Translations under genes and position numbers: made by a program
The notes under the pieces: model-generated
Database searches by the model: none
Seen by the model: only the letters and a program-made list of their open reading frames with translations
What the model was told of the DNA's origin: nothing
Shown here: in pieces, positions 6,231-46,849 of the stretch
How positions within the stretch are numbered: the first letter of the stretch is position 1
Layout: each line of letters starts with the position of its first letter
Assembly (NCBI GenBank): GCA_038044745.1
Contig: JBBSZK010000009.1
Span: 245 to 64,244, forward strand
DNA from: Nanobdellota archaeon
GTDB taxonomy: Archaea > Nanobdellota > Nanobdellia > Pacearchaeales > GW2011-AR1
DNA length: 64,000 nucleotides
Direction: 5' to 3'

Positions 6231-6277
6231 AAGTGACCAACGGAAGATTTATATACCGGTAAGATATTCTTACCTTC

Positions 6278-30878: not shown

Positions 30879-33800
30879 TTATTCGGACTTTTTCGCTTTC
30901 TCTTTCTCGATTTCTTTATTTACAAGCGGACCCGTAACCTTCACCAGCAGACCGGGAAGCCCAGTACCGACGGGAACAGGCTGGTTGAGAATAATGTTCT
31001 CAATAACTGAAGAGAGTTCGTCTTTCTTGCCTTGAATTGTTGCATTGATAAATTCTTTATCTGGAGTTTCAAACGCCGCACGAGCGAACACGCTTGACTT
31101 GTCCGAAACGATTCCCATACGCGTGACTCCCTTCACCATTCCTCCAGAGGTCATTGCATCAGAAATCAAGTCAAGATGGCGCAAGTTAATTTCCAAACCC
31201 TGACTATCTATAACTTTTTTAATTTCATTCATAATCGTTTGCCGCGCAGCCTCAATGCCGAGTACATTCGCCACCTCGTGGATATCGTTCGAAGTAACTT
31301 TATCCTTGTTGATTCCTTTAACAGTCATAACATCTTGCAAGTTGCTTCCTGCAGTAAGAACGACATAATCCTTGTCGCGCTGAGCCACAACAACTTGAGC
31401 GATGTTCTTAAGCCCAGACACTGCAGTTCGCTTCAACTTTTCTTTGAGCTTATACATGTCTCTGAAAGTCATTTCTTCAGCGTTAATTGTCACGCGCAAA
31501 TCTTTGCCTTTACACGAGAATCCCTTATCGTTAAGGCGGTCAACAATTGTTTGCGCTCCCACGTGCACCTGTTTGAGCGCATTAGCATCAAGCTCAATTT
31601 CAATTTTTTTACCAGAAAAGTCGATTTTTACTTCTCTCATAATCTCTTCAAGCTTCACTTCTTTTATCTTCTCAGCAATCACACGAGCGTCTTTCTCATT
31701 GTTATGTTCTTTGTCAAGATAAATCTCCATAAGAGGGGTACTTGGTTTCTTTCGAGCGTCAAATATTTCAATAAGACGTGGAAGTCCCAAGGTAATCTGC
31801 ATTTCCGCAACTCCTGCCGAGTGGAACACGTTCAATACCATTTGCGTTGAAGCTTCACCGAACGATTGTGCGGTTACCACACCCACTGCTTCTCCCGCAG
31901 GAACTTCTTTGCCAAGATGCAACATTGAAACATCAATGCCGTCGCCCCCAAATGCAAACTGCACGATGTTACCTGAAGCATCACGAACCGTATGGTCATA
32001 TTCTACGCGGAGGTCTTGCAGTGCGCTAACGAGCCGACGATATAAGTATCCAGACTTAGGGGTTCTGAGTGCTGTGTCCATAAGCGCGTCTCGCCCGGTA
32101 ATCGCCCCAAAGAAGTACTCGGTAGGTTTGAGTCCTTGGAAGAAAGATGACTTGATGAATCCACGTGCTTCCGGCCCAAGATCGCCACGTGCGAAGAACG
32201 GCAACGTTCTGCCACTGTATCCAAAATTAATACGTTGGCTCCAAAGAATCTGTTGCCCTACCGAACATCCGATTTGCGTAATGTTAAGTGCGCTTCCTCC
32301 AGCCTTAGACGCAATCATCTTGTTAATATTGCTATCAACAGGGAAGTTTGACTTAACGATGTTACCTGCACGCGAACGCACCTCGTTCAACACTTGTGAA
32401 ATCTTAACTTCTCGCGTTTCCGCAACCGTCTTGCCGGGGATGGGCGTAAGATTCCCTGCATCCGCATCACGAATAATCTCCTGTGTCTTTCGTTCAGCAT
32501 CTTCAATAATTTCGTTCGTGCTTTCCTTCACCTTGGCGGGCACGTTCAAGTCTTGAAGTGAAAGAGTATATCCACGTCTTGTCAAGTAATTAGCACCCAA
32601 TGTAAATGCGCGTTGAACTGTTTGAAGCGCGTCATCGCGTCCGCACTGTTTGTCAATTGCTTTAATCAAATCGCCAGCTTCAGCCGCAAAGGTCCCATCT
32701 CCAATAAGTTCTCGAGGCAATACAATCTTGGAATTTTCAGGAAGTATTTTTGAGAACACATCGACGCCGACTGCCTCTTTGGTTTTCTGATTATTGAGAA
32801 CGCCGCATGCAAAGAGCAATTGGTCCGCTTCCGCTTTAGAAATGGTATCGGTACTCATAATATAGGCACCCGTAACCGCGTCGGCAATGGTTCCGATAAG
32901 ATTGATATTGTTCTTGGAAGACATGATATTTTGTTTAACTTCAAGCAAAATTGTCGCCTCAGCACGCGCTTCCTCAGTCTGTGGGGAGTGAATGTTCATT
33001 TCATCTCCATCGAAGTCAGCGTTATAGGGGAAACATACGGCCGGATGTAACCTGAACGTTCGGTTGGGGAGTACACGCACATAGTGGGCCATAAGACTTT
33101 GTTTGTGCAATGAGGGGTGTCGGTTGAACAGAACAATATCTCCGTCCTCTAAATGACGCTCAATCTTATATCCAGGCTGAATCTCATTGCATAATTCTTC
33201 TTTTAATTCTGCAGTGATGCGTTTGCGTTTTCCATCGGGGCGCATGACGTAGTTGGCTCCGGGGTGTTCATCGCCACGTCGAATCAAGTTTTTCATACGG
33301 TCCATATTCATAGTCGTAACGCTCTCGGAAACAGTAATTGTTTTTGCAATCTCAAGCGGAATGCCTACTTCATTTATGTTCAAATAGGGGTCAGAGGACA
33401 CGACGGTACGCGCAGAAAAGTTAACACGCTTTCCAGCAAGGTTCTTACGAATGCGTCCTTCCTTTCCTTTAATACGCTCGGTAATCGTCTTCAACGGCTG
33501 ACCCGAACGGTGTCTTGCAGGAGGAATCTTGGTCAAGGTATTATCAAAATACGTCGTTACGTGATATTGCAATAAGTCCCACAGGTCTTCAATAATAACT
33601 TCGGGCGCCCCCGCATTCAGGTTTTCCCATAGGCGCTGGTTAGCACGAATAATATCCGACATCTTGTGCGTCAAGTCGTCTTCACTGCGCTCTCCAGATT
33701 CAAGTGTGATGCTCGGTCGCACGTTAACGCTTGGTACGAGCAACTGAGACAAAATGGCCCATTCAGGACGACAGTTCTTCGAGTTAACACCAACTTTGCG

Positions 33801-34322
33801 CATTTCTTCATCAGAAATTTTAATTAAAATCTCTCTGATTTCTGTGGGAAAGATACGTTTGGTGCCCACCATGAATGAACTGGGCTTTTCAAGCTTAACT
33901 TTTTCATGAGGTTCATTGCAATGCGGACATACTTTTTTGTCACGCGCTTTTTTTGCACGATCAACCGGACCTAATGCCGCTTGTTTTTCATCACTTAACA
34001 AGAGCTTACCACATTTGAGGCAAAAACTTCGCAAAAATAGTTCGATAAGCGGAATATACTTAATGTGAATAACAGGTCGTGCAAGTTCGATGCTTCCAGG
34101 GTATCCTGGGCATTCCTTCATCGTTGCACCGTCGGTACGACAGCGCACGCCAGGATCGATCGCACCCAATCGGAGATCCATAAGACCTCCATCCACGGGG
34201 AAACCGTCAACGTCATACAATTCGGGCGTAACAATCTTGGCGACGCTCAACTTCTTAATCAAGTCGGGACTAAGCAAACTGAAGCGCAATGCTTTCACTC
34301 GTTTTCTTACAGGGTATTCCAT
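30879..34322 (-). CDS. rpoA: DNA-directed RNA polymerase subunit A, A' and A'' regions fused in one 1147-aa ORF
   Basis: Zinc-binding N-terminus, NADFDGDEMN active site (about aa 434-443), bridge-helix region. It continues without a stop (about aa 800-815, nt about 31880-31925) into GEAVGVVTAQSFGEASTQMVLNVFHSAGV...TLGLPRLIEIFDARK and GIEAAR...RHLDLISDAMT...NQPVPVGTG, which are A'' hallmarks. Confidence 0.92.
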   Translation of the reverse strand: MEYPVRKRVKALRFSLLSPDLIKKLSVAKIVTPELYDVDGFPVDGGLMDLRLGAIDPGVRCRTDGATMKECPGYPGSIELARPVIHIKYIPLIELFLRSFCLKCGKLLLSDEKQAALGPVDRAKKARDKKVCPHCNEPHEKVKLEKPSSFMVGTKRIFPTEIREILIKISDEEMRKVGVNSKNCRPEWAILSQLLVPSVNVRPSITLESGERSEDDLTHKMSDIIRANQRLWENLNAGAPEVIIEDLWDLLQYHVTTYFDNTLTKIPPARHRSGQPLKTITERIKGKEGRIRKNLAGKRVNFSARTVVSSDPYLNINEVGIPLEIAKTITVSESVTTMNMDRMKNLIRRGDEHPGANYVMRPDGKRKRITAELKEELCNEIQPGYKIERHLEDGDIVLFNRHPSLHKQSLMAHYVRVLPNRTFRLHPAVCFPYNADFDGDEMNIHSPQTEEARAEATILLEVKQNIMSSKNNINLIGTIADAVTGAYIMSTDTISKAEADQLLFACGVLNNQKTKEAVGVDVFSKILPENSKIVLPRELIGDGTFAAEAGDLIKAIDKQCGRDDALQTVQRAFTLGANYLTRRGYTLSLQDLNVPAKVKESTNEIIEDAERKTQEIIRDADAGNLTPIPGKTVAETREVKISQVLNEVRSRAGNIVKSNFPVDSNINKMIASKAGGSALNITQIGCSVGQQILWSQRINFGYSGRTLPFFARGDLGPEARGFIKSSFFQGLKPTEYFFGAITGRDALMDTALRTPKSGYLYRRLVSALQDLRVEYDHTVRDASGNIVQFAFGGDGIDVSMLHLGKEVPAGEAVGVVTAQSFGEASTQMVLNVFHSAGVAEMQITLGLPRLIEIFDARKKPSTPLMEIYLDKEHNNEKDARVIAEKIKEVKLEEIMREVKIDFSGKKIEIELDANALKQVHVGAQTIVDRLNDKGFSCKGKDLRVTINAEEMTFRDMYKLKEKLKRTAVSGLKNIAQVVVAQRDKDYVVLTAGSNLQDVMTVKGINKDKVTSNDIHEVANVLGIEAARQTIMNEIKKVIDSQGLEINLRHLDLISDAMTSGGMVKGVTRMGIVSDKSSVFARAAFETPDKEFINATIQGKKDELSSVIENIILNQPVPVGTGLPGLLVKVTGPLVNKEIEKEKAKKSE

Positions 34323-34323
34323 G

Positions 34324-37300
34324 TTATTCGTATTTGTTCTTCAACTCAAACGTTGTAAGAATGTGCATAGCCAATAGTTCATCAACAAGCAATTTAAATG
34401 CATAGGATACTTCGATAGGTTCAACGTCCGTGCTTCCCGTGACAGGACAGTACGTTTTGTTTCTAATACGGTCTCGTATCGCAAGGTGGCCGCTGTTCGT
34501 TGCAACGTATAAGGTTGTTTTATCTGAATCGTACCGTTCTTTCAAGAGGAGCGATGCTCCGTGAGCCACAAGCGCTTGTTGTTCCATCTCTCCCAATCGA
34601 AGCGCGCCACCACGTGCACGACCTTCAGTCGGCTGGCGCGTCAAAAGCGCAACTTTACCCGATGCACGCGCATGAATCTTATTACTCACCATATATCGTA
34701 GCTTAAGATAATACATGGTGCCGATGTAAATCTTGGCTTCCATCTTCTTACCCGTAATCCCGTTATACATAGTTTCTTTACCATCATATCGGAAGCCCAT
34801 CTCTCGGAGAGTGCCCTCAAGCTCTTCGACTTTCGCACCCGTAAACGCCGTACCATCAACATGTCGTCCGCTCACCGCAGCAGTTTTACCTGCAAGGAGT
34901 TCAATCAGATATCCAAGAGTCATACGACTCGGAATACCATGCGGATTGAATATCAAGTCAGGCCTGATTCCACGAGAAGTAAAGGGAATATCTCTTGGAT
35001 CTGCAATAAGTCCCACAACTCCTTTCTGCCCGTGCGGTGTAGAGAACTTATCTCCAGGTTCGGGCAATCGCAAGTCGCGAATACGTACTTGTGCAATTTT
35101 GTTTCCATCGTTGTCTGCCGTGATAAATACGGCATCAACCGTGCCCTTCTCTTCTTGACGTATAACGGTACTTGCTTCTTTCTTCGATTGAATGCTAATG
35201 TCTTTCGCCTCAGACAAGAATTTAGGCGGCGTGGTTTTTCCAATAACAACGTCTCCCGAGTGAACGGCTGCTTCAGGATACGCAATTCCATCATCTTCAA
35301 GATATTGATACGAGGCTTCAGTACGATATCCCGCGACGTCTTTATCAGGTACAAGAATCTCATCTTTAAGTCCGCCCGTATATTGCAATTCGGTCGCCTT
35401 ATAGGGTCGGAAGTACGTGCTGCGCCCCATACCACGGTCAACGCTTCCTCTATTAAGGATAACGGCGTCTTCTACGTTGTATCCCTCAAAGGGCATAATC
35501 GCAACAACAAGGTTCTGTCCCGACGGATACGCTTCAAGTGTATCATACATGAAACTCTTGACAAGCGGATGCTGCGGATAATGAAGGATGGAAACATCGG
35601 TATCTAATCGTGTAAGATAATTAGCTGCATAAATACCGAGTGACTGTTTAAGAGTCTTGCTTCCACGATTGAGACGAGAAGACTGGTCATGGTTGCCGAA
35701 CGGTACGAGCGAAGTGATAAGCCCAAAGACATCAATTAAGTCTACTTCAAGATGTGTCGTCGTTTCGTTGATTTTATCGGGATAGAGCGCAACAAATGCG
35801 TCTTCTTCTTCAGAAGCATCAAGGTATTCAATAATTCCTTCTTTAACCAAGTCAGTCCAGCTCAATTTTCCTTGTTCAAGCATCAAGATGTGTTCATCCT
35901 TCAACAGAGGCGAACCCTCTTTAACAATAATAAGGGGGCGCAGTACACGACCAATCTCTGTAGAAATGACCGCTGAACCCGTCTCACTCTTACTTTGAAT
36001 GCTCAATTCAGGGGGAAATTCTCCCTGTCGTCGTGCTTCACGAACACTGCGAACAAAATCAACTACCGATCGTACGCTTCCGATAAATCGTCCATTGAAG
36101 AAGACATCAGTCCCTTGACCTTCAGAGCTCAATCCAAGACTTTGGAATCGCTTGAGTGCACGCGCTTCATCAAACTGTACGGTCGTAGAAACACGAGCAA
36201 GAATCGCAAGGTTCTTGCGCAGACCGATCTCGGTACCTTCAGGTGTTTCGGTGGGACAGAATCGACCGTAGTGTGTCGGGTGCAAGGTTCGTGCCATGAA
36301 ATTTTCCTGCTCTCCTGGGAGCATACTTGAGACGCGCTGTAACTGTGAAAGAATCGCAAGGTAATTAGTCTTATCCATGTTTTGCGTAACACCTGTGCGC
36401 TCGCCAATCCACGAACCAGTCGCGATAGCGCTCTCAATACGTTGTGTGAATAGAGTAGATTTAGCGACGGTCTTAATAGAATAGAACTTCTTTCGCTTCA
36501 TAACTTTCTGAAGCGAATATTGAATATCTCTCACAAGAATGCTTAAGTTGATTCTGAACAAATCGGAAAGTAAGTCTCCCGTAAGCTTGACGCGCTTGTT
36601 TGCATAATGGTCTTTGTCGGTGCGCATCTTGGTATCCATCTTTGCATTAAGAAATTGTTTGATGAGCTTACAGAGCGTGACTGCCTTTTCTTCACGCGCG
36701 TTCTTATCAAGTCCAATGTGTGGCAAAAGAAAATCATCAATGCGTTTCTTTGTGCGATCAAGAATTTCTTTCTTCGTGCCCTGAATAGACGCCTTTTCTG
36801 CAATAGAGAGCAGAGCATCTTCAGGTGTTTGGATAGATGCGTATTCATATAGATTGACAATAACACAATCATCTTCTTTACCGATGTGCTTTGCAATGTC
36901 TGCTTCCTTTGTAAGGCCAAGTGCCTTTAACAACACGACTGCAGGAATATTCTTCAATCGGCTGAACGTAACGTCAAGAATACCTTCATTAGTTTCAGTA
37001 ATAGTGGTAGGGATACGATATGTCCCACGTTGTGAGAAAAGGCGAAGCATGAGGCCGTTGCGTCCCTCTTCAAGGAACGGCTGATTGGATGCAAGGTCCT
37101 CGGCCATGACCATGATACGCTCATTTCCATTGACAACGAAATATCCGCCCGGGTCAAGCGGGTCGATATAGTTCTCAACAAGTTCCTCTTTGTTCATACC
37201 AAATGTATTACAAGCCGCGCTACGAACCATAATGGGAATACGTCCGATTTCAACTTCGCCACTATCGTTCTGATCGCCGTACTTGGCGCTCAATTCGACA

Positions 37301-37569
37301 AAAACGGGAGCAGAGTACGTCAGGCTTCGCAAACGCGCTTCGGTAGGAGTAATTTGGCTAACACTTCCATCTGCTTCAATTGTATCAGGCTTACCAATGC
37401 GGACTTTTCCAAGTGTCACATCAACATCTTCTTTATTTGAGGTTTCATTAACTTCGTTCACAATTTGCTGCATGCGATTGTGCACAAAATCGTTGAAGCT
37501 TCGAATGTTTGATTCAACAAGCGAGTGCTGCTCAAGATATTTTTTGATAAGGAGATGTTTTTCTTTCAT
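34324..37569 (-). CDS. rpoB: DNA-directed RNA polymerase subunit B (unsplit, 1081 aa)
   Basis: Full-length Rpb2-like sequence, including HGQKGV, GEMEQQALVAHGA and a C-terminal Cys cluster region. Confidence 0.95.
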   Translation of the reverse strand: MKEKHLLIKKYLEQHSLVESNIRSFNDFVHNRMQQIVNEVNETSNKEDVDVTLGKVRIGKPDTIEADGSVSQITPTEARLRSLTYSAPVFVELSAKYGDQNDSGEVEIGRIPIMVRSAACNTFGMNKEELVENYIDPLDPGGYFVVNGNERIMVMAEDLASNQPFLEEGRNGLMLRLFSQRGTYRIPTTITETNEGILDVTFSRLKNIPAVVLLKALGLTKEADIAKHIGKEDDCVIVNLYEYASIQTPEDALLSIAEKASIQGTKKEILDRTKKRIDDFLLPHIGLDKNAREEKAVTLCKLIKQFLNAKMDTKMRTDKDHYANKRVKLTGDLLSDLFRINLSILVRDIQYSLQKVMKRKKFYSIKTVAKSTLFTQRIESAIATGSWIGERTGVTQNMDKTNYLAILSQLQRVSSMLPGEQENFMARTLHPTHYGRFCPTETPEGTEIGLRKNLAILARVSTTVQFDEARALKRFQSLGLSSEGQGTDVFFNGRFIGSVRSVVDFVRSVREARRQGEFPPELSIQSKSETGSAVISTEIGRVLRPLIIVKEGSPLLKDEHILMLEQGKLSWTDLVKEGIIEYLDASEEEDAFVALYPDKINETTTHLEVDLIDVFGLITSLVPFGNHDQSSRLNRGSKTLKQSLGIYAANYLTRLDTDVSILHYPQHPLVKSFMYDTLEAYPSGQNLVVAIMPFEGYNVEDAVILNRGSVDRGMGRSTYFRPYKATELQYTGGLKDEILVPDKDVAGYRTEASYQYLEDDGIAYPEAAVHSGDVVIGKTTPPKFLSEAKDISIQSKKEASTVIRQEEKGTVDAVFITADNDGNKIAQVRIRDLRLPEPGDKFSTPHGQKGVVGLIADPRDIPFTSRGIRPDLIFNPHGIPSRMTLGYLIELLAGKTAAVSGRHVDGTAFTGAKVEELEGTLREMGFRYDGKETMYNGITGKKMEAKIYIGTMYYLKLRYMVSNKIHARASGKVALLTRQPTEGRARGGALRLGEMEQQALVAHGASLLLKERYDSDKTTLYVATNSGHLAIRDRIRNKTYCPVTGSTDVEPIEVSYAFKLLVDELLAMHILTTFELKNKYE

Positions 37570-37775
37570 CAGATGACGACCCGATAGTATTCTTGTTTAC
37601 CATCTCCTACAATTCGCTCAATTTTTATGACATCGCCTCGTTGCGCGCCTTCCGGAACACCAGAATCAGTCGCCTTTATCTTCGGTAATTGTCCAACAGA
37701 AATACGGAACGTATCTAGAAGTTTTTTCAACTCTTCCGGTTTTAGCTTCGTGTGTTTGGGCTGTAGGATGTGCAT
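37569..37775 (-). CDS. rpoH: DNA-directed RNA polymerase subunit H
   Basis: 68 aa. HILQPKHTKLKPEELKKLLDTFRISVGQLPKI...DVIKIER is Rpb5-C-like, in the conserved position upstream of rpoB. Confidence 0.88.
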   Translation of the reverse strand: MHILQPKHTKLKPEELKKLLDTFRISVGQLPKIKATDSGVPEGAQRGDVIKIERIVGDGKQEYYRVVI

Positions 37776-37881
37776 TTGTAACGGCGAAATGACGTTGGTA
37801 AACGGGATAACAATTCTGTATAAAAGTGGCTTTTTAAATGTATCGCCCGCACCCTAATTTCAGGCAACATAGTGCTGGTCT

Positions 37882-37892
37882 CCGACGGGATT
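37882..37892. repeat. Fossil fragment of the tRNA-Lys T-arm
   Basis: ccgacgggatt is identical to 50029-50039 in the same orientation, 64 nt left of att copy A. Confidence 0.45.
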
Positions 37893-37955
37893 CCCGAAGG
37901 TTCAAAAGAACCGAGGGGGACTAAGGATTGCAATCCTTAGGATGTTCAAATCCAA

Positions 37956-37967
37956 ATGGCCCCGACG
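37956..37967. repeat. Direct repeat of the tRNA-Lys 3' end (att copy A)
   Basis: atggccccgacg is 12/13 identical to 50023-50035 in the same orientation. Confidence 0.7.
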
Positions 37968-38064
37968 ACCCTAACGCATTTTGACTAAAACTTGGCGTAT
38001 TATTAGGTACAAGTTTTATACAAGATTATGTGATCTTCAGAATTTTTAAGGATTGTCGAGATAC
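37968..38064 (+). repeat. Conserved element left arm (copy A)
   Basis: Aligns with 39296-39388 and 6142-6230 through an ordered series: cattttg, ggcgta, attaggtac (38002-38010), ttatac, and atttttaaggattgtcgaga (38042-38061). Confidence 0.65.
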
Positions 38065-38074
38065 AGTCTATCGA

Positions 38075-38398
38075 TTAGAAACCAAAAAGTCTTTCGTAAT
38101 CTTTGTGATTCATCCAATTGAGTAATGCTGCGATTATCTCAATTTGTCCTCCAGATGTAATAGAATAGAGCAATCTCCAACCAGTCGGAAGATCATAAAT
38201 CCATAAGTTATTTAGATTATATTTATCAATCAACTTTTTAGGAATTAACTCTTTTTTCACGTTTCTTCCGCAAGAGAAGTTTTCCTGAATTGCACCTACT
38301 GCGCGTATTATTCCTTTCTTTATTGGGTCGTTATCAGATAACTCATTAAAGCTTTCTTCAAGTTCTTGGTCTACAAAGATCACTTTATCAGGTTTCAT
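38075..38398 (-). CDS. RelE/ParE-like toxin (107 aa)
   Basis: C-terminal NLWIYDLPTGWRLLYSITSGGQIEIIAALLNWMNHKDYERLF fits the RelE/ParE pattern (..W.....yRl.Y.i.....i.i..i..H..Y). It overlaps the upstream partner gene by 4 nt. Confidence 0.5.
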   Translation of the reverse strand: MKPDKVIFVDQELEESFNELSDNDPIKKGIIRAVGAIQENFSCGRNVKKELIPKKLIDKYNLNNLWIYDLPTGWRLLYSITSGGQIEIIAALLNWMNHKDYERLFGF

Positions 38399-38685
38399 AG
38401 TTTAATGGCCGGTCTGTTCTTTATTTTTTCAAAGAATGCAGGATTCCAAATATAAACGAGAAATCCTTCATTATCATATGCTATCTTTCCAATGCTTTCC
38501 AGATATTCAATAATAACTTGAAACGTTTGCCACATTACCTTGCGAGGAAGATTATTGAACAGTTCTGTTTTTTTGAATTCTCCGCTATGTTTCTCAATAA
38601 ATTTCTCAGCCATTAGCACAGTCTGTAAGGTGGGAGATCGTGCAAATTCTGATTTCTTCTCGCTTGTTAGTTCCATATCAATCAT
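38395..38685 (-). CDS. Putative antitoxin / winged-helix protein (96 aa)
   Basis: Translationally coupled (ATGA overlap) to the RelE-like gene. No strong motif. Confidence 0.4.
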   Translation of the reverse strand: MIDMELTSEKKSEFARSPTLQTVLMAEKFIEKHSGEFKKTELFNNLPRKVMWQTFQVIIEYLESIGKIAYDNEGFLVYIWNPAFFEKIKNRPAIKL

Positions 38686-38776
38686 ATCAATTGATATTAT
38701 TTAAACTTTCCGGTTTTAATGATTGTCGAGAAGAGAAATCGTTAAAGTCTACGATTTAAAGCGAATATCTTTCTCT

Positions 38777-39172
38777 TTACTTAACTCTTTTACTTCTACC
38801 TTCTAAGTCCTTTCTCATCTTATCAAGATTATGTTTCGAAGGAAATACTATAAGTCCATCAACTTGGTGCTTGTTTCCATCATACTCAAAATACCCGAGA
38901 TTGTATAAACTAAACCAAGATTTTTCTACAGTAGTGAATTTCCAAGACTTAGGAATATCAGCAGGTTCATTCATAACAATAACTAAATCAATATCAGAAC
39001 CGATTTGATTTCTATAAGGTTCTTTGTAAAGACCAAATTTTCTTTCAGCAAGAGAGGCCCAAACATAGGCTTCTTTGACACTACTAGATTTAGATAGAAG
39101 TTTTTTAATAAAGTCTTCAGCTTTAACCCAGACGTCATCCTGGTCAGCATATAGGATTTTTTCTGGTTTCAT
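38777..39172 (-). CDS. Minimal nucleotidyltransferase-domain protein
   Basis: GSDIDLVIV (G-S...D-x-D NTase motif). 131 aa. No adjacent HEPN partner. Confidence 0.6.
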   Translation of the reverse strand: MKPEKILYADQDDVWVKAEDFIKKLLSKSSSVKEAYVWASLAERKFGLYKEPYRNQIGSDIDLVIVMNEPADIPKSWKFTTVEKSWFSLYNLGYFEYDGNKHQVDGLIVFPSKHNLDKMRKDLEGRSKRVK

Positions 39173-39178
39173 AAAGAT

Positions 39179-39198
39179 TCTCGATATTATCTAAACTG
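39179..39198 (-). repeat. Inverted copy of the terminal TATA-like/ATCGAGA motif (right end of islet 1); probably also the NTase promoter
   Basis: Plus strand tctcgatattatctaaactg. The reverse complement tttagataatatcgaga lies 7-27 nt upstream of the NTase ATG. Confidence 0.45.
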
Positions 39199-39282
39199 AA
39201 TAACTTAACTATAAAAGTCTTATTAAGCGACTTGTATAATCCTTGTACATACAAAAACTACGAAATTTGACAAAAATATATG

Positions 39283-39295
39283 ATGGCCCCGACGG
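39283..39295. repeat. Direct repeat of the tRNA-Lys 3' end (att copy B)
   Basis: atggccccgacgg is 13/13 identical to 50023-50035 in the same orientation. Confidence 0.8.
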
Positions 39296-39388
39296 CCCTA
39301 GTACATTTTGTCCATTTTTCGGCGTAGTGATTGGTACAAGCCTTATACAGATTCTCTAGACATAAGCGATTTATAAATATTGTCTAGA
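39296..39388 (+). repeat. Conserved element left arm (copy B), ending in the 23-nt TIR gcgatttataaatattgtctaga
   Basis: See copy A. The TIR partner lies at 49936-49958. Confidence 0.65.
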
Positions 39389-39421
39389 AGAATTGCAAAA
39401 ATCAATCTGAGGTTGTTCTAC

Positions 39422-39958
39422 TTATGCTGTTCCAGGTCGGATATAAAAATAACCTTTGCAATTTTCAGAAACTCCGGACAAATCCCTCTTAAGAATTTTT
39501 TCAGAGTCAATACCTTTTCCACCAATCCATAAAGGCGATTGATGACCTGAATTGAGAGGCAATCCATTGTAGTGGCTGTCTATTTCTAGTAATCTAGAAA
39601 GATTGCCTGGACCTTGAGCAAATCCTCGTGAACCTGCCCCATCTCTAATTTCTGCAGCAATAAGGGTAACGCAAGAGGGTTTTCCAAATTTACCTGTCGC
39701 AATGTCTACAAGGTGCTTACCATATTTAGTGCTAACCGAAACAATTCCTGAAGCGTATTTTATTCCTTCAGAAGCCGTCTTTGCATCTCCTTGATAAGCG
39801 GCTACTTCATGTAGTTGCGCATATAGTGTTGCTGAACCCTCGCGTCCTACAACAAAAACACGTCCTAATAGATCTTGAGCCACATCAACTGCAGGTCTAG
39901 CAAAAAAGTCATGACTAAGCTGTGTCTTTCGATGTGGAATGTCAAATCCTTTGGCCAT
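39422..39958 (-). CDS. DNA-3-methyladenine glycosylase (MPG/AAG family)
   Basis: FFARPAVDVAQDLLGRVFVV...EVAAYQGD...A...GPGNLSRLLEID matches the MPG family layout. Confidence 0.7.
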   Translation of the reverse strand: MAKGFDIPHRKTQLSHDFFARPAVDVAQDLLGRVFVVGREGSATLYAQLHEVAAYQGDAKTASEGIKYASGIVSVSTKYGKHLVDIATGKFGKPSCVTLIAAEIRDGAGSRGFAQGPGNLSRLLEIDSHYNGLPLNSGHQSPLWIGGKGIDSEKILKRDLSGVSENCKGYFYIRPGTA

Positions 39959-39992
39959 TATGTGTTACTCTGTAATGGTTACATAAACATAA

Positions 39993-40009
39993 GCTTTATA
40001 AACTTTATG
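39993..40009 (+). promoter_or_regulatory. TATA/BRE-like promoter cassette gctttataaactttatg
   Basis: TATA centre about 24 nt upstream of the ATG at 40024. Identical 17-mer at 16570-16586. Confidence 0.5.
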
Positions 40010-40023
40010 CTGACCCTCTTTAT

Positions 40024-41040
40024 ATGGAAAAAAGACCCGAATATAAGGGGACTTTTCAAGACCTCTGTGTAGACCAAGTAAGGCGTGGAAATAGCTATGC
40101 GTCTGGTTTTTTAAAAGATGGTAAAAGTGCTCTTGCTCTTGCATTAGAACGTGCGAAACGTATTGGTCTTCCTACTGAGGTAATACATAGAGCAGAAGAA
40201 AGAGGCATGCTTGAATCAGAAGCAGGTAAGTCCGTACTTGCTAACAGTTCTTACAGCCTTTTAATGAGACAAAAGCCCGCAGTTATTAATAGTGTGAAGA
40301 AAACCTTTTTCTTGAGCGATTCAGAAGTAAATCATCTTCTCACGGCCGCTGTGGGGGATGGTCTTCTTCTTATGGATGATGAACATTCTGAAATTAAAAT
40401 CCTCGCGTCAGACGAAGAACATACTATTATTACGACTAATGCTGATGAGGTACTCGCTACTAGAAAAGTTGAGACGGAAAGCGAAAGATTAGACAGGGTA
40501 CAAAAAGAAATTAACAAACAAATAGATAACAGAAATAAAAGAGAGAAAGTAAGAGTAATCAAAGGAGACGATTGCATCTCCTCTAAAAATCTGTCAGAAA
40601 GCGCACTAGAATACCTCAGAAAGAACAAGTATAAGGAAATCTCATTCAAAGGAATAATATCGGGAAATAAGCAGAAATATTTCATTAAGCCTAAAAAGAG
40701 TGAAAGTCCGCAACACATATTCTGCGTGTATGATATTGCATCATATCTGAAAAGCTTCACAGAAAAAGTGTTTACCTATCATGCCGTTAAAGCAGATATC
40801 GTGTTTGAAGTGAATGGAAAAGAATATGCGATTGAAGTTGAAACAGGCAAGATGATGAAACATAAAAAAGAAGAGCTAAAGAAGAAAGTAGAGAATCTTA
40901 ACAATAAATATCAAGACAGATGGTTCTTTGTTGTGACTGATAGAAATTTAAGAACAAAATATGCTAAATTAGGTACGACCTATGATAAAAGACACCTAAC
41001 AAGCGTTATTAATCGCATTGTCAGTGATTCTGCCAACTGA
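40024..41040 (+). CDS. Chimeric protein: N-terminal segment resembling the extreme C-terminus of VirB4/HerA-FtsK-type transfer ATPases (no P-loop) plus a C-terminal PD-(D/E)xK nuclease-like domain
   Basis: N-terminal part: ...FFLSDSEVNHLLTAAVGDGLLLMDDEHSEIKILASDEEHTIITTNADEV. C-terminal part: VKADIVFEVNGKEYAIEVETGK (D...E.E.K-like). No Walker A motif anywhere. Confidence 0.4.
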   Translation: MEKRPEYKGTFQDLCVDQVRRGNSYASGFLKDGKSALALALERAKRIGLPTEVIHRAEERGMLESEAGKSVLANSSYSLLMRQKPAVINSVKKTFFLSDSEVNHLLTAAVGDGLLLMDDEHSEIKILASDEEHTIITTNADEVLATRKVETESERLDRVQKEINKQIDNRNKREKVRVIKGDDCISSKNLSESALEYLRKNKYKEISFKGIISGNKQKYFIKPKKSESPQHIFCVYDIASYLKSFTEKVFTYHAVKADIVFEVNGKEYAIEVETGKMMKHKKEELKKKVENLNNKYQDRWFFVVTDRNLRTKYAKLGTTYDKRHLTSVINRIVSDSAN

Positions 41041-41131
41041 CAGCCTATTGTCAGTAGGATTTAAGGTCTTTTCAGCCAAATTTCAGCCGTTCATCGACGA
41101 ACTTATAAAAGTAGGACTGCGTATTGTCAGT
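41017..41131 (+). repeat. Three direct copies of ATTGTCAGT (iteron-like)
   Basis: Copies at 41017-41025, 41047-41055 and 41123-41131. The second forms the palindrome actgaca-gcctat-tgtcagt with upstream sequence. Related to the ATTGTCGAGA end motif. Confidence 0.5.
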
Positions 41132-41221
41132 TAACGATTTCTCTCTTTCTCTTCTTCTCTCTGCCTCTCGGACAGATGGTGGGGGCCGGTGCAGCGCTAG
41201 GAATTACATTTTTAATAAGCG

Positions 41222-41257
41222 ACACCACGTCTTTTTTTTGAAGAACTGACGTGGTGT
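41222..41257. terminator. Hairpin with T8 loop between convergent island genes
   Basis: 10-bp stem acaccacgtc / gacgtggtgt (41222-41231 and 41248-41257). The 16-nt loop begins with tttttttt. Confidence 0.35.
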
Positions 41258-41280
41258 GCTTTGGGCTACCCGAGTATTAA

Positions 41281-42831
41281 TTAAAATTTAGTCGCGTTGA
41301 TAAACGCAGAAACTTGATTTACAATTTCTGAATAAGTTATGCTCTGATTTTCCCACACATTCAAGATACGGAAAAGAGAAGGCATGTTAGTAAACGACTC
41401 TCCTGTAATGATATAGTTAAACACCCACGTTTGATTATTGAGAACGGTTGCTCTATTGAAATTGCCTAAATATTGTTCTCCCAATTGGTTAAACAAATAA
41501 ACTTGTCGATTATTGAGGATAAAATTATTAGGTAGGGAGGCATTGATACCCTGCTCTATGGCCAAATCTCCTTCACTATTGTTTGCCCCATATACAACTA
41601 CAAGTTTTGGCCTGCGGCTTACATTTGTGTCGTCTTTGCCTGCTATTCTCACTTCTTTTCCAGTTGTATAAAAGCCAACGAAACCAGTGCTAAATCTATC
41701 ACTCGTAAGTCCCTTTTCAAAGTCTCGACCTGCTTCTTCTGATAAAGGAATGTCTATAAATTCAAGCGTTTGATAACCATTCTCGCTGTAGAACGATGCA
41801 TTGCCCATATCGTTATAAAATTGACAATTGCCCTGACAGCTAGGAGTGGTATCGCTGTAACTTCCGCTCCATCCCTCCATGGGGGTAACTCCTAGATATA
41901 CGTTTTGTGAAGAAGGTGAGGCGGTTGTAAGAAATAACTCAAGATTCACAGATTGCACTGCTGAAGAATCTGATATTGAAGAAATATTCCAGTCTATATT
42001 TGCACGAGCCATACGCCCCAGATCAGAAGGAATCACTATAAGTTCTCCCGCCTGAAGATAGGTCGAAGGATTATTAGTTCTAGTGTAAGTAGAGGTCGTA
42101 GCATTGGTACGATTGATAATATAGCCATTCCATAAAATTGCACTCGAATCCAAACTTAGACTGGGATCAATAATAAGAGGATATTGTATATCGGGATATG
42201 CCAAAAATGAAGTAGGAACATGTACAGTAATGTTACTTCCAGTATTTTCATAGACAAGATCAAGACACAGACCTTTTGCATCACATATAAATGGGGGAAG
42301 AATAGTGAAGTCTGCATCTCCCTCCTTAGAAAATACCAAATTAATGCCTTCTTGTGATGAGGCCCCTAGGGGATTATTAATAACGATTTCTTCCTTGAGT
42401 AAAGTTGGCAAATAATGATATCTCACATCAACATCATTAATGACATTAGAATAAAATATACTATTTTCTCGCATTGAAGGAGTAAATGTTGGGGTCGCGC
42501 CATTAATCTCTATGAGTTTCATAGAAATACTTTGTCCATGACGGAAAGCAGTGATAGTTCCATCAGCACGAGCTTCCGCACGATAGTAATAATCTCTTGT
42601 GCAGTATTTAGTAATTTCAGATTCTGAGCACTGGGAGAAACTTTCATCAATCTCCCCCCAACGTCCATTGTTACCTTTCCAATACTTATCGTAAGAGTAG
42701 ATTTGAGCAGTACACGAACTACCCTCGCAGACAGTATCCCAATTGGAGCCGTAATTTGTTTCTTGAGCATATACGAAGGTCGAACTAATAAATATCAGAA
42801 AAATGGTCAACATAAAGTAAATCTTACTCAT
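41281..42831 (-). CDS. Secreted protein (516 aa), possibly with a DNRLRE-like beta-sandwich
   Basis: Signal peptide MSKIYFMLTIFLIFISSTFVYAQE. Asn/Ser/Thr-rich and beta-rich. The segment ANIDWNISSISDSSAVQSVNLELFLT is reminiscent of DNRLRE domains. Confidence 0.7.
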   Translation of the reverse strand: MSKIYFMLTIFLIFISSTFVYAQETNYGSNWDTVCEGSSCTAQIYSYDKYWKGNNGRWGEIDESFSQCSESEITKYCTRDYYYRAEARADGTITAFRHGQSISMKLIEINGATPTFTPSMRENSIFYSNVINDVDVRYHYLPTLLKEEIVINNPLGASSQEGINLVFSKEGDADFTILPPFICDAKGLCLDLVYENTGSNITVHVPTSFLAYPDIQYPLIIDPSLSLDSSAILWNGYIINRTNATTSTYTRTNNPSTYLQAGELIVIPSDLGRMARANIDWNISSISDSSAVQSVNLELFLTTASPSSQNVYLGVTPMEGWSGSYSDTTPSCQGNCQFYNDMGNASFYSENGYQTLEFIDIPLSEEAGRDFEKGLTSDRFSTGFVGFYTTGKEVRIAGKDDTNVSRRPKLVVVYGANNSEGDLAIEQGINASLPNNFILNNRQVYLFNQLGEQYLGNFNRATVLNNQTWVFNYIITGESFTNMPSLFRILNVWENQSITYSEIVNQVSAFINATKF

Positions 42832-43160
42832 AGTTTCTGTTTACCTCCATATTTCAACCAAGCAATTGAACAGGATAACAGATAAGCCACGAATAAGGGC
42901 ATTAATACAATGAAAAGATATGTTAATATCAACTCATTGAATGTCGTACAGCTACAATGACAGCCCACTTTTATGATAAGATACTTACTGTAGTCCGTAC
43001 AGCCATCAAATCCGCCTCTTTCACAAAAACATCTCATGCTTCCAAATACAGTCCAGGATAATATTAGCCAGAATACAAATAATATTACGAGAGTAACTAT
43101 TTTAAATCGAGTTGGTCGCCAAAACCCATTCGTCTTTTGTTGCAGCACTATCTTTTTCAT
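42828..43160 (-). CDS. Cys-rich small membrane protein (110 aa)
   Basis: Two TM helices flank CFCERGGFDGCTDYSKYLIIKVGCHCSC. The ORF has a 4-nt overlap with the downstream gene. Confidence 0.6.
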   Translation of the reverse strand: MKKIVLQQKTNGFWRPTRFKIVTLVILFVFWLILSWTVFGSMRCFCERGGFDGCTDYSKYLIIKVGCHCSCTTFNELILTYLFIVLMPLFVAYLLSCSIAWLKYGGKQKL

Positions 43161-43161
43161 C

Positions 43162-46100
43162 CTAAATTGTAACTCCTATTCTATCCATTTCTATGTAGTT
43201 ACTACTGGTTGCTAAAAATGTAGCATTATAACTTCCAGAAGTGGAATAATTATGATAAATATATACAAAAATAGCTTCCGCAGGCTGTAAATGAAATAGC
43301 AGAGTAGAATCCTTGATATCCTCTCCAGAATCAAATTGCCAGGTTATATTTGCTATATTGAAGTTGGCAGTATTGTTCAATTCTACTAAAAAGACACGTT
43401 CAGTACTATTCGTATAAACTTCCTTGAAATTAACAATTTGTAAGTCATTGTCTACCCCGAAGGTGTTGGTCATTGCACTAGAATTCGTGTTAGCACCATC
43501 ACTTGCTAATACCTTGATTTTATAAGTAGTGCCATCTGGAAGATCGCTTGAATTTATAGAGTAAGAAGTCTGATTGAGATCAAGAGCCACCGTACTATAA
43601 GTAGTCCCGTTATCGGGACTGACTAAGATGGCATAACTTAATGTATCTCCATCTGAGTCAGAAGCAGTCCAATTTATGGTTAGTTCCTGATTACTAAATA
43701 TTTGACTACCTGGATAAGAAGTTAAAGTGAGAGCAGGCACATGTGCGGATACATTTCGCGTATCTTTAGTCACACCGTCTTTCTTTAATATGAATTTGGA
43801 AAAGCTCTGATTAAAGGGGATAGTAAATGCAAAGGCAGTTTCATTTATTTGAGTAGAATTGCTTCCAAGTAAAAAGTAAGTAAAAGAAACATCGAAACTA
43901 AAGTTGTAAACTAAACCGTTAGTACTGTTATAGGCTTCAATAGTATAATTTCCAGTTTGATATTCAGTTTGATTAATTGCTAAACCCGCACCCACCGTGT
44001 AGAAGTTTTCAAATCTTCCCGTATCAGAAGATCCATTGATAATCCCCGATACAACAATACGGGATGTTGTAGATATAGGGGTTGCATGTTTAAATTCCTG
44101 AAGTAGATGCTCATAAGACTCGTCAGAAATCCAGTTTCTCTTTGTAACCAAAAGATTCCCCATAAAGTTAGATAAGGGATCTGTATAAAGGGGATCGACT
44201 GTAAGAGGGCTCAAGGTGGAGGCAGGGCAACCATCTGGAGCGCATCCCGCATCCAAGATCTCATCATTGTTGGCATCACCATTTGGACAAAGATCCGTAA
44301 AGCCAAGGAAAGAATTTTGAGACGACCATTCATCACTATCGTATTCATCACAAAATCCATAAGTGTGACCGAGTTCATGGGCGGCAACATGATCTAGAAC
44401 ATTATAGTCTTCGAGGTCAGCTTCGACTAGCACTCCATTGTTAAACATACTACTAACTCCATGTGTACCTTGGTCTCCAAAGATGTTATCTGCAAACCAA
44501 TGAAAAGGAACTATCCCGACAGCTCTTTCAGGGAGTTCGCCAGCTATCAACGTGCTTCTATAAACTCTATGCATCAATAAGGGGAAACCAACCCCATAAG
44601 GGGCTCTTTCGGCTATATTGCTTTGGATACCTGTTCGATTAGTCTTTGCGATTAAACCAGTATCGCTTAAAGGATAGGTTTTCTTTATAAAATCAATAGA
44701 ATCACTAGCCACATTATCAAAGTTCCCAGCATTATCAACAGAAACAAAAGTCACGCTTAGGTTCCTAGTAGCGCTTACATTAACTACCTTTTTAGCGACT
44801 CCACCGAAGACCGCAACCTTCACTTCCTTATTATTGCCGGCAACATCGGGTTTAAAGTAGAAATCAATAGTTTTCATAGTCTCTGTTGCGTTAAATATAG
44901 CGGTAGTTGAATTCTTTAAAACATTATCAAAATACAAACTAACCAAAACTTGTGAATTGGAAGAAGCGTTTATCTCAGTTCTGACTAAAGTTTTTCGGTC
45001 CTTAACTAATTCTGTGTTTTCGATGACCTGGGCTAATCTCATGCTATTTATATTTCCAGACCCGTTGTTTTCATACCATTCTACAAAATCTGTAAAACCT
45101 CGCGCACCCACTACATCTATAGCCTCATCCCCATTTAAGTCTACACTCTGTAAAAAGGAAACTCCGTTGCCAGTGGAAGTTATAGTTTTCCTAGTCCAAT
45201 TCAATGACGAACCACTGTTCTCATACCACGATATTTTAAAATCATTATCTGATCCGCTTACAACATCAACATCTCCATCGCCGTCAAAATCTGCTGCAGA
45301 TACAGCAACTGCTCCGTCAGCGCTTGTGTTAATTATTCTACCGGTCCAACCTGCAGGAATTGAACCATTGTTCTCATACCAAGCAACCTTATCATCGTTT
45401 CGAGAAGCACTTAATACATCCATATCTCCATCACTATCCAAGTCAGTTGCATATACGGAACGAGCGTCATCCGCTGTGGTGTTTATAGTTCTTGTTGTCC
45501 AAGTCAGGGGGCTTCCACCATTATTTTGATACCATTCTATTTTATCGTTATCTCTTGATGCACTAATAACATCAGTATCATTGTCCTTGTCCATATCTAT
45601 AGCATATAACGATCGTATCTCTCCAACTGATGAAACCAATACATTCTCCGTCCAGGTTGGGGGAGACCCACCATTATTTTTAATAAAATAAATTTCGCCC
45701 AAGCCTAAACTTTCACCAACTATAATGTCCATTCGTCCATCTTTGTCTAAGTCCGCAACAATTACAGTTCTTGGAGAATAAGGAGGCCCGAGATTGCTCA
45801 CAGTTCGGTTTGTCCATCCTGGCGGACTCGATCCGTTGTTCTGGTACCAAATGACTTGGCCATTATCAACACCGGTATGAGATACACTTACAACATCGAT
45901 ATAAGTATCATTATTTATATCTGCTGCGAAAACTGCTTTAGGCGAAAGAAAGGAAGTGGCTATTGATCTCTCAATCCAAGTTGAGCCATTGTTTTCGTAC
46001 CAAGCTATCTTCTTATCATTCTCTGATGAACTTACTACATCAAGATCCCCGTCTTTGTCTATGTCTGCAGTATACAATCCAGTTGCCCAGTCTGCAGAAG

Positions 46101-46827
46101 AACCGATTACATGTGTGGTCCATCCCAATTCAGGGTCAATTGCTAATTCCTGCAATTGAGCCAAATCCACGTTTAGTTCTAAATCAATATAATTGCGATT
46201 TTCTTTAGAATAAACTGATACCTTATAATCAAAGTTTAAAATATCTTTAAAATCATAATAATTGTTCCCAAAATAAATAACATTCCCATCTAAATAAGTC
46301 TCTTCATCAGTTGAAGAGGCATCTCTTTTGTTCTCAAAGGCTCTAAAATATGTCGGAACAGTCGACAAAGTATAATTTGTCCCATTCCAAATAACTGTGG
46401 AAGAATCAATTTCGTATCTTACATTAAGTTTTACAGTTCTTGATTCAGCTAGTAAGTTTTTAATAAAATAAGTTTGTTTCACAGGTTTTTCTTTAGTGTT
46501 AAAGAGACTTGTATCGTGCTGGCGATAATCACTTTTAACTTCTAGATTGTTGAATTTAAATGTGCTACCATGTTCACCATTCGTTTTCTGGATGTTCTCT
46601 GTGTTAAAATCCTTAGAAGAAGAGATATCAAAAACTATATTTTTATATCCCTTTAAATATGAAAATTTAGTTAAAGCGTTTGTATCGTCGAGATTTTTTA
46701 TTTCTTTATTCTTAACTATTCCTACTTGGTCCTTAGAAATTACAAAATTAGCTTGGAACAAAACAAGAAAAAGCACACCGAGGGCAATAAATCCTATAGA
46801 AAATAGATATGCTCCTCTTCTACCCAT
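43162..46827 (-). CDS. Giant surface protein: TM anchor, 7 FG-GAP/VCBS repeats (beta-propeller), HExxH zinc-metalloprotease domain, Ig/FN3-like modules
   Basis: Trimmed to MGRRGAYLFSIGFIALGVLFLVLF. Seven DxDxDGxxD-type repeats (ADIDKDGDLDVVSSS ... VDLNGDEAIDVVGA), each followed by WYENNGS-like strands. HVAAHELGHTYGFCDEY. C-terminal LTINWTASDSDGDTLSY module. Confidence 0.8.
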   Translation of the reverse strand: MGRRGAYLFSIGFIALGVLFLVLFQANFVISKDQVGIVKNKEIKNLDDTNALTKFSYLKGYKNIVFDISSSKDFNTENIQKTNGEHGSTFKFNNLEVKSDYRQHDTSLFNTKEKPVKQTYFIKNLLAESRTVKLNVRYEIDSSTVIWNGTNYTLSTVPTYFRAFENKRDASSTDEETYLDGNVIYFGNNYYDFKDILNFDYKVSVYSKENRNYIDLELNVDLAQLQELAIDPELGWTTHVIGSSADWATGLYTADIDKDGDLDVVSSSENDKKIAWYENNGSTWIERSIATSFLSPKAVFAADINNDTYIDVVSVSHTGVDNGQVIWYQNNGSSPPGWTNRTVSNLGPPYSPRTVIVADLDKDGRMDIIVGESLGLGEIYFIKNNGGSPPTWTENVLVSSVGEIRSLYAIDMDKDNDTDVISASRDNDKIEWYQNNGGSPLTWTTRTINTTADDARSVYATDLDSDGDMDVLSASRNDDKVAWYENNGSIPAGWTGRIINTSADGAVAVSAADFDGDGDVDVVSGSDNDFKISWYENSGSSLNWTRKTITSTGNGVSFLQSVDLNGDEAIDVVGARGFTDFVEWYENNGSGNINSMRLAQVIENTELVKDRKTLVRTEINASSNSQVLVSLYFDNVLKNSTTAIFNATETMKTIDFYFKPDVAGNNKEVKVAVFGGVAKKVVNVSATRNLSVTFVSVDNAGNFDNVASDSIDFIKKTYPLSDTGLIAKTNRTGIQSNIAERAPYGVGFPLLMHRVYRSTLIAGELPERAVGIVPFHWFADNIFGDQGTHGVSSMFNNGVLVEADLEDYNVLDHVAAHELGHTYGFCDEYDSDEWSSQNSFLGFTDLCPNGDANNDEILDAGCAPDGCPASTLSPLTVDPLYTDPLSNFMGNLLVTKRNWISDESYEHLLQEFKHATPISTTSRIVVSGIINGSSDTGRFENFYTVGAGLAINQTEYQTGNYTIEAYNSTNGLVYNFSFDVSFTYFLLGSNSTQINETAFAFTIPFNQSFSKFILKKDGVTKDTRNVSAHVPALTLTSYPGSQIFSNQELTINWTASDSDGDTLSYAILVSPDNGTTYSTVALDLNQTSYSINSSDLPDGTTYKIKVLASDGANTNSSAMTNTFGVDNDLQIVNFKEVYTNSTERVFLVELNNTANFNIANITWQFDSGEDIKDSTLLFHLQPAEAIFVYIYHNYSTSGSYNATFLATSSNYIEMDRIGVTI

Positions 46828-46849
46828 CTCCGACCGATGAGAGTCTACT

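Follow-up and report, generated by a model that had tools for sequence, protein, structure and literature searches.

The stretch of DNA analysed here, referred to as the window, comprises 64,000 nt of contig JBBSZK010000009.1 (assembly GCA_038044745.1) from a groundwater DPANN archaeon, and contains three low-GC islands whose ends carry a conserved arm of about 100 nt, which is the subject of this work. The archaeal nature of the window is apparent from unsplit RpoB and RpoA together with RpoH (30879-37775), an intron-containing tRNA and leaderless genes. The islands, A (6130-7310), B (37956-39294) and C (39283-50035), have a GC content of 0.33-0.38, compared with ~0.45 for the window, and all three are bounded by direct repeats of 12-13 nt that copy the 3' end of a tRNA gene. 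The distal repeat of island A, TACGCCCGGACCA (6129-6141), identified by repeat-family comparison, copies the 3' end of tRNA-Ser(GCT), whose gene lies at 7299-7385 on the minus strand and whose own 3' end (7298-7310) forms the proximal repeat. Islands B and C stand in tandem at an intron-containing tRNA gene (50024-50155, minus strand), the source of the repeat ATGGCCCCGACG, which is found in three copies: a distal one (37956-37967), a middle one, ATGGCCCCGACG(G), common to the right of B and the left of C (39283-39295), and the tRNA gene's own 3' end (50024-50035). The intron measures 57 nt, and the gene was missed by ARAGORN with default settings and found with Rfam. The ARAGORN reading gives Thr(UGU) with an intron at 36/37, while a canonical 37/38 intron would give Lys(UUU). 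One repeat of each pair is, thus, the 3' end of an intact tRNA gene, as in tRNA-integrated elements. Foreign composition is evident from the low GC content, and island B is polymorphic, being absent from another genome (L077).

Just inside the distal repeat of each island lies a left arm of ~95 nt, homologous in A, B and C, in which CAYTTTTG, GGTAC..TACA and TTTATAA-nn-ATTGTCGAGA(T) follow one another in this order. An earlier sequence-only reading had placed homologous arms at 6142-6230, 37968-38064 and 39296-39388. Its sequences are indeed present at these positions, and all three align above mononucleotide shuffles. The comparison of B with C gave a local-alignment z of 9.2, with none of 500 shuffles scoring as high, followed by A with C (z 3.6, 2/500 shuffles) and A with B (z 2.6, 9/500 shuffles); the homology of arm A rests more on the common motif order and on cross-genome profiles than on pairwise alignment. 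An nhmmer profile built from 10 arms, four of them from this window, matched the arm of A with E=1e-11, the left arms of B and C with E=1e-15 and E=4e-15, respectively, and the right arm of C with E=3e-16. On the plus strand, the arm of A contains CACTTTTGCAT, GATTAGGTAC and a TATA/motif module, TTTTATAAATCTTGTCGATAA, at 6208-6228. The modules of the left arms of B (37968-38064) and C (39296-39391), also on the plus strand, are ATTTTTAAGGATTGTCGAGAT (38042-38062) and GATTTATAAATATTGTCTAGAA (39368-39389).

The right ends carry the same sequences in inverted orientation, with decreasing fidelity from C to A. A 21/23 inverted match between 39366-39388 and 49936-49958, noticed previously, is real (91%) and forms part of a larger feature: the left-arm profile matches the right end of C, inverted, over ~105 nt (50029-49925, E=9e-7). 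This right arm (49933-50023, minus strand) is a full-length inverted copy with the module GCGATTTATAAGTATTGTCGAGAT, the reverse complement of 49935-49958. The right end of B, where a weaker copy had been proposed (39179-39198), matches less strongly (profile E=0.11, pairwise z=4.9); it is a degenerate inverted arm (39165-39282, minus strand) that contains ATTTTTGTC, TGTACAAGGATTATACAAG and ATATCGAGAA and lies upstream of a nucleotidyltransferase gene. A possible copy at 7239-7260, at the right end of A, did not reach significance (whole-arm z=1.5). The convincing part of that end (7205-7298, minus strand), where the leaderless promoter of a 119-aa gene is also located, is a terminal inverted repeat of CACTTTTGCAT (6151-6174 versus 7271-7294, 79%; terminal 11-24 nt), which is clearly homologous. 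Because the left-arm profile also matches the right ends of C and, weakly, B in inverted orientation, the arms are ~100-nt imperfect terminal inverted repeats, a larger feature than the left-arm homology and short inverted box described before. An extra copy of the motif, reported at 38715-38731, is exact and belongs to a solo TATA/motif module, GGTTTTAATGATTGTCGAGA (38712-38732, plus strand), which in island B separates a toxin-antitoxin-like operon from the gene for the nucleotidyltransferase.

Comparison of all arms, including those from other genomes described below, defined a common anatomy. The core consists of 12-13 nt identical to the last bases of the tRNA gene, covering the T-stem end, the acceptor 3' strand, the discriminator base and one more. 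Inward from the core, a spacer of 3-10 nt is followed by (C)CAYTTTTG(G), containing the box CCATTTTG(G), by a GC-rich block (GTGGGC or TGGGAC), by a T-run with a TGTAC..(G/A)TACA dyad (GGTACAAGyyTTATACA in B and C) and, after 12-20 variable nt, by (G)ATTTATAA-nn-ATTGTCGAGAT. The region around the core reads CCATTTTG-core-CCAAAATG. T-run and box are spaced by 73-76 nt in 12 out of 17 arms (range 64-83 nt). The TATA part of the module varies (TTTATAA, TTTTTAA, TATTTAA, GTTATAA), whereas the adjoining 11-mer ATTGTCGAGAT and the spacing are fixed, and the module faces into the element wherever the boundaries are known. The two ends differ in their outermost bases, and their inverted similarity sets in only 3-10 nt inward of the repeat; in most cassettes, conservation is far stronger in the left arm than in the right. 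The dyad is weak or absent in A, C-right and the arms of L088, L090 and L091. As a separate observation, the 9-nt spacers behind the cores of the window (6142-6150, 37968-37976 and 39296-39304) look like a second, degenerate version of that portion of the core which corresponds to the acceptor stem: GCCCGGACCA is followed by ACCCGGCTCA in A, and GCCCCGACG by CCCTAACG or GCCCTAGTA in B and C, with differences that are mostly transitions. In the arms of other genomes the spacer is unrelated, of the GCAAGAGAC type.

We searched 185,579 species genomes with a strict two-block pattern (CATTTTG-N55-63-TTWTAANNNTTGTCKAKA). This pattern was found in 14 genome contigs, five of which are from DPANN metagenome-assembled genomes (MAGs), with six matches. 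The DPANN matches fit the arm profile along its entire length or the greater part of it (E 2e-12 to 1e-21), noting that three of these contigs (L080, L083 and L088) had themselves supplied arms to the profile, while in the remaining pattern-matched contigs the profile matched no more than a fragment. A stricter pattern yielded 10 additional metagenome contigs. In a collection of viral contigs, the strict pattern had no match, and none of the 70 chance-like matches of a loose pattern fit the arm profile. The related genome contigs are labelled Woesearchaeota or Nanoarchaeota. Copies retrieved without requiring the motif (A, C, B-right, 38712-38732, L087c, L093a and L095b) keep 7-11 of its 11 bases, and one of them, L087c, from another genome, is identical to the module of B at 23 out of 24 positions. 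The similarity in the unconstrained middle of the arm (GTGGGC, GTTTTATGTACAAG..TACA) speaks independently for homology. In front of nearly all arms lies a sequence that looks like a tRNA acceptor/T-stem end in reverse complement, such as ACGCCCGGACCA, ACGCCCCCGCCGA or ATGGCCCCGACG. Tandem arms in one orientation were observed in L087 (three) and L093 (two), with junctions of the form CAAAATGG-N3-5-core-N9-CCATTTTG, the same as the B/C junction in the window. The first element of L093 has two inverted arms that match almost perfectly, with ATGGCCTCGACG and ATGGCCCCGACG on their outer sides. Solo modules located between cargo genes and away from cores are found not only in the window (38712-38732) but also in L095 (~956). 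The arm family recurs across DPANN genomes and is specific to the elements; no description of it was found in the literature searched, where it appears to be undescribed.

The cargo of the islands and of related loci comprises Fic, PIN and ParE/MazE proteins, AbiE-type and MNT-type nucleotidyltransferases, an AAA_14/DUF4143 ATPase and a reverse transcriptase. These genes lie in either orientation and have their own leaderless promoters. Pfam scans covering the island open reading frames (ORFs) of at least 80 aa as well as the cargo found at related loci retrieved no recombinase, and no regulator gene is common to the cassettes examined. The homologue of the island B nucleotidyltransferase in L094 is preceded by a full arm that matches the degenerate right arm of B; therefore, either end of a cassette can face the tRNA. 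Island C has a 338-aa ORF (40024-41040, plus strand) whose homology to VirB4/TraC-like ATPases (PF19044) is limited to their C-terminal part. Such ATPases are common in Nanoarchaeota, and the copy in island C is a truncated remnant, so that C looks like a decayed conjugative-type element. This fragment is the only transfer-related gene in the islands, which retain their attachment (att) sites, as cis-mobilizable elements (CIMEs) do. Another DPANN MAG, L004, encodes an intact cluster resembling a type IV secretion system (T4SS), with TrbC pilin, TrbL, TraC-like and VirB4 proteins. Relatives of the 338-aa protein were considered as possible neighbours of arms, and the T4SS-like cluster of L004 has none.

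Comparison with the L077 genome, which is 93% identical in the rpoB flank, provided evidence of mobility. It carries island C at the same site and lacks island B, and its single arm is that of B-left up to GGTACAAGTTTTATACA and that of C-left from GATTCTC onward, the switch falling within the 7-nt TTATACA. This chimeric arm indicates that B was lost or gained by a crossover in the TTATACA common to both arms. Two of the tandem arms of L087 agree in all of 54 nt, up to a point shortly beyond the dyad, after which they are unrelated. These mosaics are compatible both with homologous or microhomology exchange from arm to arm and with a site-specific reaction occurring at the dyad; a pair of cases does not suffice to tell the two apart. 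The interval between the rpoH promoter and the tandem (37850-37955) is a hairpin-rich stretch that is 96-97% conserved in L077. It contains a perfect hairpin, CTAAGGAT-TGCA-ATCCTTAG, as well as GGTTC-AAAA-GAACC, and its GTTCAAATCC makes up a 10-bp inverted repeat with the tRNA T-loop region across the original attB. It has no match in Rfam.

We next consider the module at the inner end of the arms, for which promoter, antisense-RNA and recombinase-binding roles had been suggested. The decamer ATTGTCKAKA has four exact matches in the 64 kb versus 0.65 expected by chance, all of them within islands (38052, 38722 and 39379 on the plus strand, 49936-49945 on the minus strand); the corresponding copy in island A reads CTTGTCGATA (6218-6227). 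It is absent from ~60 core upstream regions and confined to the islands. Core genes have TTTATAA or TTTAAATA ~30 nt before the ATG, without the downstream box. A single core promoter, upstream of 3656-4102, reads TTTATAAGGGAATTGTC and shares only ..ATTGTC with the arm module. There, the divergent genes 3656-4102 (minus strand) and 4160-4555 (plus strand) have a common palindromic TATA box, TTTATAAGGGAATTGTC, the sole core promoter that partly resembles the module. The island-only decamer, the ~60 core regions without the box and the lack of an ATG at the right distance exclude a generic promoter consensus.

The idea that the module drives the genes it faces was not borne out in its simple form. 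Cargo genes are 60-170 nt from the module, are convergent about as often as co-oriented and have leaderless TATA boxes of their own, so the module is not their proximal promoter. An antisense-RNA promoter likewise lacks specific support, given that neither structure nor conservation was found downstream, where the box is followed by no conserved sequence apart from a loose GAT-rich run in some copies. A structured or antisense RNA gene was rejected, as RNAalifold predicted no pairs on 16 arms and no Rfam match was obtained even at E<=1. A leaderless small ORF begun by the module was rejected too, only tiny, unrelated ORFs of 2-16 codons being present downstream. The T-run of the right arm might conceivably act as the terminator of the tRNA; the uninterrupted tRNAs of the window have no such T-runs behind them. 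A scan for bacterial sigma-70 promoters and terminators is uninformative for an archaeon. By its hallmarks, the TATA-ATTGTCGAGAT module resembles a TBP/TFB-type promoter joined to a fixed protein-binding box. Archaeal repressors bind between the TATA box and the expected start site, which is where the box of the module lies. The module lies at a constant spacing from the box next to the core and appears in mirror image at the two ends, which also fits an arm-type site of a recombination complex. Promoter/operator and arm-type site may, on this sequence evidence, be two roles of one site rather than alternatives. Of the interpretation offered by the sequence-only reading, the island-specific arm and module have been upheld, and a candidate integrase, which it had raised as a possibility, does exist elsewhere on the contig; the proximal cargo promoter and the antisense RNA lack support.

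The candidate integrase was found on the same contig, 17 kb from the islands. It is a 378-aa tyrosine recombinase with the R..HxxR..Y signature and a C-terminal zinc ribbon, encoded 2.7 kb beyond the window (window-equivalent 66673-67809). It belongs to an island of its own at ~62.0-68.0 kb (L100 5000-11032), with a GC content of 0.27-0.37, which also encodes an Mrr-like nuclease (62021-63052, minus strand), a ThsB-TIR protein and a cold-shock protein. A tRNA-end-like sequence, CCGAGTCCGAGCG, is located upstream of the integrase promoter region. Homologues that are 65-68% identical lie near tRNA-Gln/Glu genes together with Orc1/Cdc6. One of them (L104, 65% identical) is directly beside tRNA-Glu, in an element with integrase and Cdc6 whose bounding 13-nt repeat, TCGGCGGGAGCAT, falls on those tRNA positions that the repeats of islands A, B and C cover as well. 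Exactly this repeat geometry is, hence, generated by an integrase family of the lineage. Downstream of tRNA-Gln in L103 (9330-9440), a 16-nt copy of the tRNA end (ATCCGGGTGGGGCTAT, one mismatch) recurs after ~62 nt and looks like a minimal att-flanked remnant beside an integrase and Cdc6 element. Scans of window ORFs, chiefly of the longer ones together with those of the islands, gave no match to an integrase, Cas1, PolB, DDE enzyme or transposase, and neither a Cas1 casposase nor PolB was present in those ORFs or in the annotation of ~20 kb of flanking contig. On the other side, ~18-19 kb left of the window start (L102 21238-21248), a partial IS240/IS6-family DDE transposase and an N6/N4 methyltransferase were noted. 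The link of the contig integrase to the cassettes is circumstantial, consisting of repeat geometry and co-residence.

Taken together, we consider it somewhat probable that the arms are the conserved ends of small integrative gene cassettes without a recombinase of their own, inserted at tRNA 3' ends in DPANN archaea of the Woesearchaeota type. The right end carries the same modules as the left, inverted. In island C, the modules sit 71 and 66 nt from the core; therefore, the circle formed on excision would contain an imperfect palindrome of ~200 bp with the core at its centre, serving as attP. Strand exchange within the core would be carried out by a recombinase provided in trans, most likely the zinc-ribbon tyrosine integrase encoded 17 kb away. 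In this way, several cassettes would gather in tandem at a single tRNA gene, as is the case for B and C, and recombination from arm to arm would also delete or shuffle them. The TATA-ATTGTCGAGAT module would be bound by a family-specific protein on a TBP/TFB-type promoter, constituting an inward promoter and operator that may at the same time serve the recombination complex as an arm-type site.

Several observations weigh against this proposal. No recombinase adjoins any arm examined, no tRNA, arm or motif was found in the integrase island on the contig, and neither arm nor box is present at four homologous integrase loci. In the attP of tyrosine integrases, the P and P' arms usually differ, and long inverted arms are atypical. 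Between the inverted CCATTTTG boxes lie 24-26 bp, a distance far above that of a 6-8-bp overlap region. The three tandem arms of L087 carry different cores, which is not accounted for by simple, repeated insertion into a single att site. The near-invariance of the motif across genomes is partly a matter of ascertainment, because the scans required it, and the copies in A, C, B-right and L093a, found without this requirement, are less perfect. Regarding promoter activity, there is no gene start at leaderless distance from the module, and in half of the cases the module points towards the 3' end of a convergent gene.

As the main alternative to integrase-dependent cassettes, the islands could be non-autonomous casposon- or transposon-like elements, in which the arms are terminal inverted repeats (TIRs) bound by an enzyme in trans and the repeats are target-site duplications at a fixed distance from the T-loop part of the tRNA. 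The inverted ends of ~100 nt, the repeats starting right behind the T-loop region in different tRNAs, the tandem arrays and the lack of an integrase within any element would all be explained. Casposons, indeed, have TIRs, 15-bp duplications abutting the T-psi-C segment and tandem insertions (PMC9939771). However, casposase needs the terminal nucleotides (PMC9939771), whereas the outermost bases differ here and similarity begins only 3-10 nt inside. The repeats are of 12-13 nt, not of the 14-15 nt that would be found beside TIRs starting at the element termini, and the left arm is far better kept than the right in most cassettes. Cas1, PolB and DDE enzymes are missing from the window ORFs scanned, the flanks contributing only the partial IS240-type DDE at the L102 end, and in a related genome this repeat geometry is generated by an element that does carry an integrase. 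We, thus, regard this explanation as unlikely.

Another explanation is that the module is purely transcriptional, a family promoter and operator with the T-run possibly serving as terminator or insulator, with no role in recombination and the rest of the arm conserved by descent. Variable TATA-like sequences beside an invariant box at fixed spacing are what a promoter with an operator would look like, and so is the position of the box between TATA and start site, the place where archaeal repressors bind. Solo modules between cargo genes, away from cores, and the inward orientation where boundaries are known point the same way. Nevertheless, the cargo has its own leaderless promoters and is as often convergent as co-oriented, no transcript, ORF or structure is conserved downstream, and the cassettes share no regulator gene. 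Moreover, in 12 out of 17 arms the module is 73-76 nt from the CCATTTTG box (range 64-83) and it is mirrored in C, suggesting a fixed nucleoprotein architecture around the core. A module devoted to transcription alone seems, accordingly, improbable to us.

A broader proposal, which we also hold to be unlikely, is that the arms define an undescribed DPANN gene-capture system at tRNA genes, whose cassettes are inserted, excised and shuffled by a dedicated reaction on the arms. That reaction could sit at the TGTAC..TACA dyad or use a casposase- or transposase-like enzyme measuring from the T-loop, and the invariant TATA-ATTGTCGAGAT box would then be the recognition site of the machinery. If this were true, the cassettes would represent an archaeal functional analogue of integrons or of casposon-derived miniature elements, with no known integrase. 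A specific version is an integron-like platform, with site-specific exchange inside the arms at a TGTAC-N7-9-TACA dyad and not at the tRNA core. The L077 arm switches from B-type to C-type within TTATACA of the dyad, the L087 arms diverge just past it after 54 identical nt and have different cores, and toxin-antitoxin and defence cargo in same-orientation arrays is also typical of chromosomal integrons. Yet, these are only two mosaics, equally explained by homologous or microhomology exchange at the longest shared stretches (GGTACAAG and TTATACA); the dyad is weak or absent in A, C-right, L088, L090 and L091; and no IntI-like gene or attC-like structure was seen, with RNAalifold finding no pairs on 16 arms. 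We give this version little credence. Chance similarity, a generic promoter or a structured small RNA gene, which the AT-richness and TATA-like sequence of the arms and the TTTATAAGGGAATTGTC promoter upstream of 3656-4102 could have suggested, is effectively refuted by the shuffle and profile statistics, the recurrence in other DPANN genomes, the absence of the box from ~60 core upstream regions and the lack of RNAalifold pairs and of Rfam matches at E<=1.

The proposed integrative cassettes can be placed among known systems. In Streptococcus, CIMEs related to ICESt1 keep attL and attR, have lost their integration genes and undergo tandem accretion at tRNA genes (PMC5704250). Like them, the cassettes keep att sites, are without integration and transfer genes, and occupy tRNA 3' ends in tandem with one att copy shared; the VirB4/TraC-type ATPase fragment of island C is what would be expected of a decayed conjugative element. 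Unlike CIMEs, they reside in a DPANN archaeon, have inverted arms of ~100 nt conserved over unrelated cargos and several tRNA targets, and have cores of only 12-13 nt, and no helper element with the same arms was found. They share the tRNA 3'-end target and short direct repeats with archaeal pNOB8-type integrase elements, the 13-nt repeat of L104 having the same position, although the cassettes have no integrase and the integrase-bearing relatives examined have neither the arm nor the ATTGTCGAGAT box. Family 2 casposons have TIRs, a 14-15-bp duplication at the T-loop-coding part of a tRNA gene and tandem insertions (PMC9939771). The cassettes resemble them in their terminal inverted repeats, a short duplication abutting the T-loop part and tandem insertion, and differ in lacking Cas1 and PolB, in repeats of 12-13 bp and in termini beside the repeat that are not inverted copies. 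With integron cassettes and the pdif modules of Acinetobacter they have in common small cargo units (toxin-antitoxin, defence) that are promoter-independent and set off by a recurring recombination site, one-orientation arrays and mosaic junctions; in contrast, they have no attC-type hairpin, no recognised IntI or Xer-type site and are anchored at tRNA ends.

Very little is known about gene gain and loss in DPANN archaea, with genomes of ~1 Mb. The signature formed by a tRNA-end core, CCATTTTG and TTTATAA-nn-ATTGTCGAGAT marks a family of small cassettes with toxin-antitoxin, Fic and other defence-type genes in Woesearchaeota and Nanoarchaeota. Such cassettes form tandem stacks and show polymorphism between closely related genomes, and the signature eases the mapping of this variable gene pool. 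The arms point to a recombination machinery acting in trans, and the invariant 11-mer ATTGTCGAGAT is a concrete target for finding its binding protein.

Two further genes of the window deserve mention. A class II ribonucleotide reductase (50593-54582, minus strand) is split by an intein with a LAGLIDADG homing endonuclease and adjoins an NrdR-like regulator (54589-55026). RNA polymerase subunit A (30879-34322, minus strand) is encoded as a single 1147-aa ORF, unlike the A'/A'' split of most archaea.

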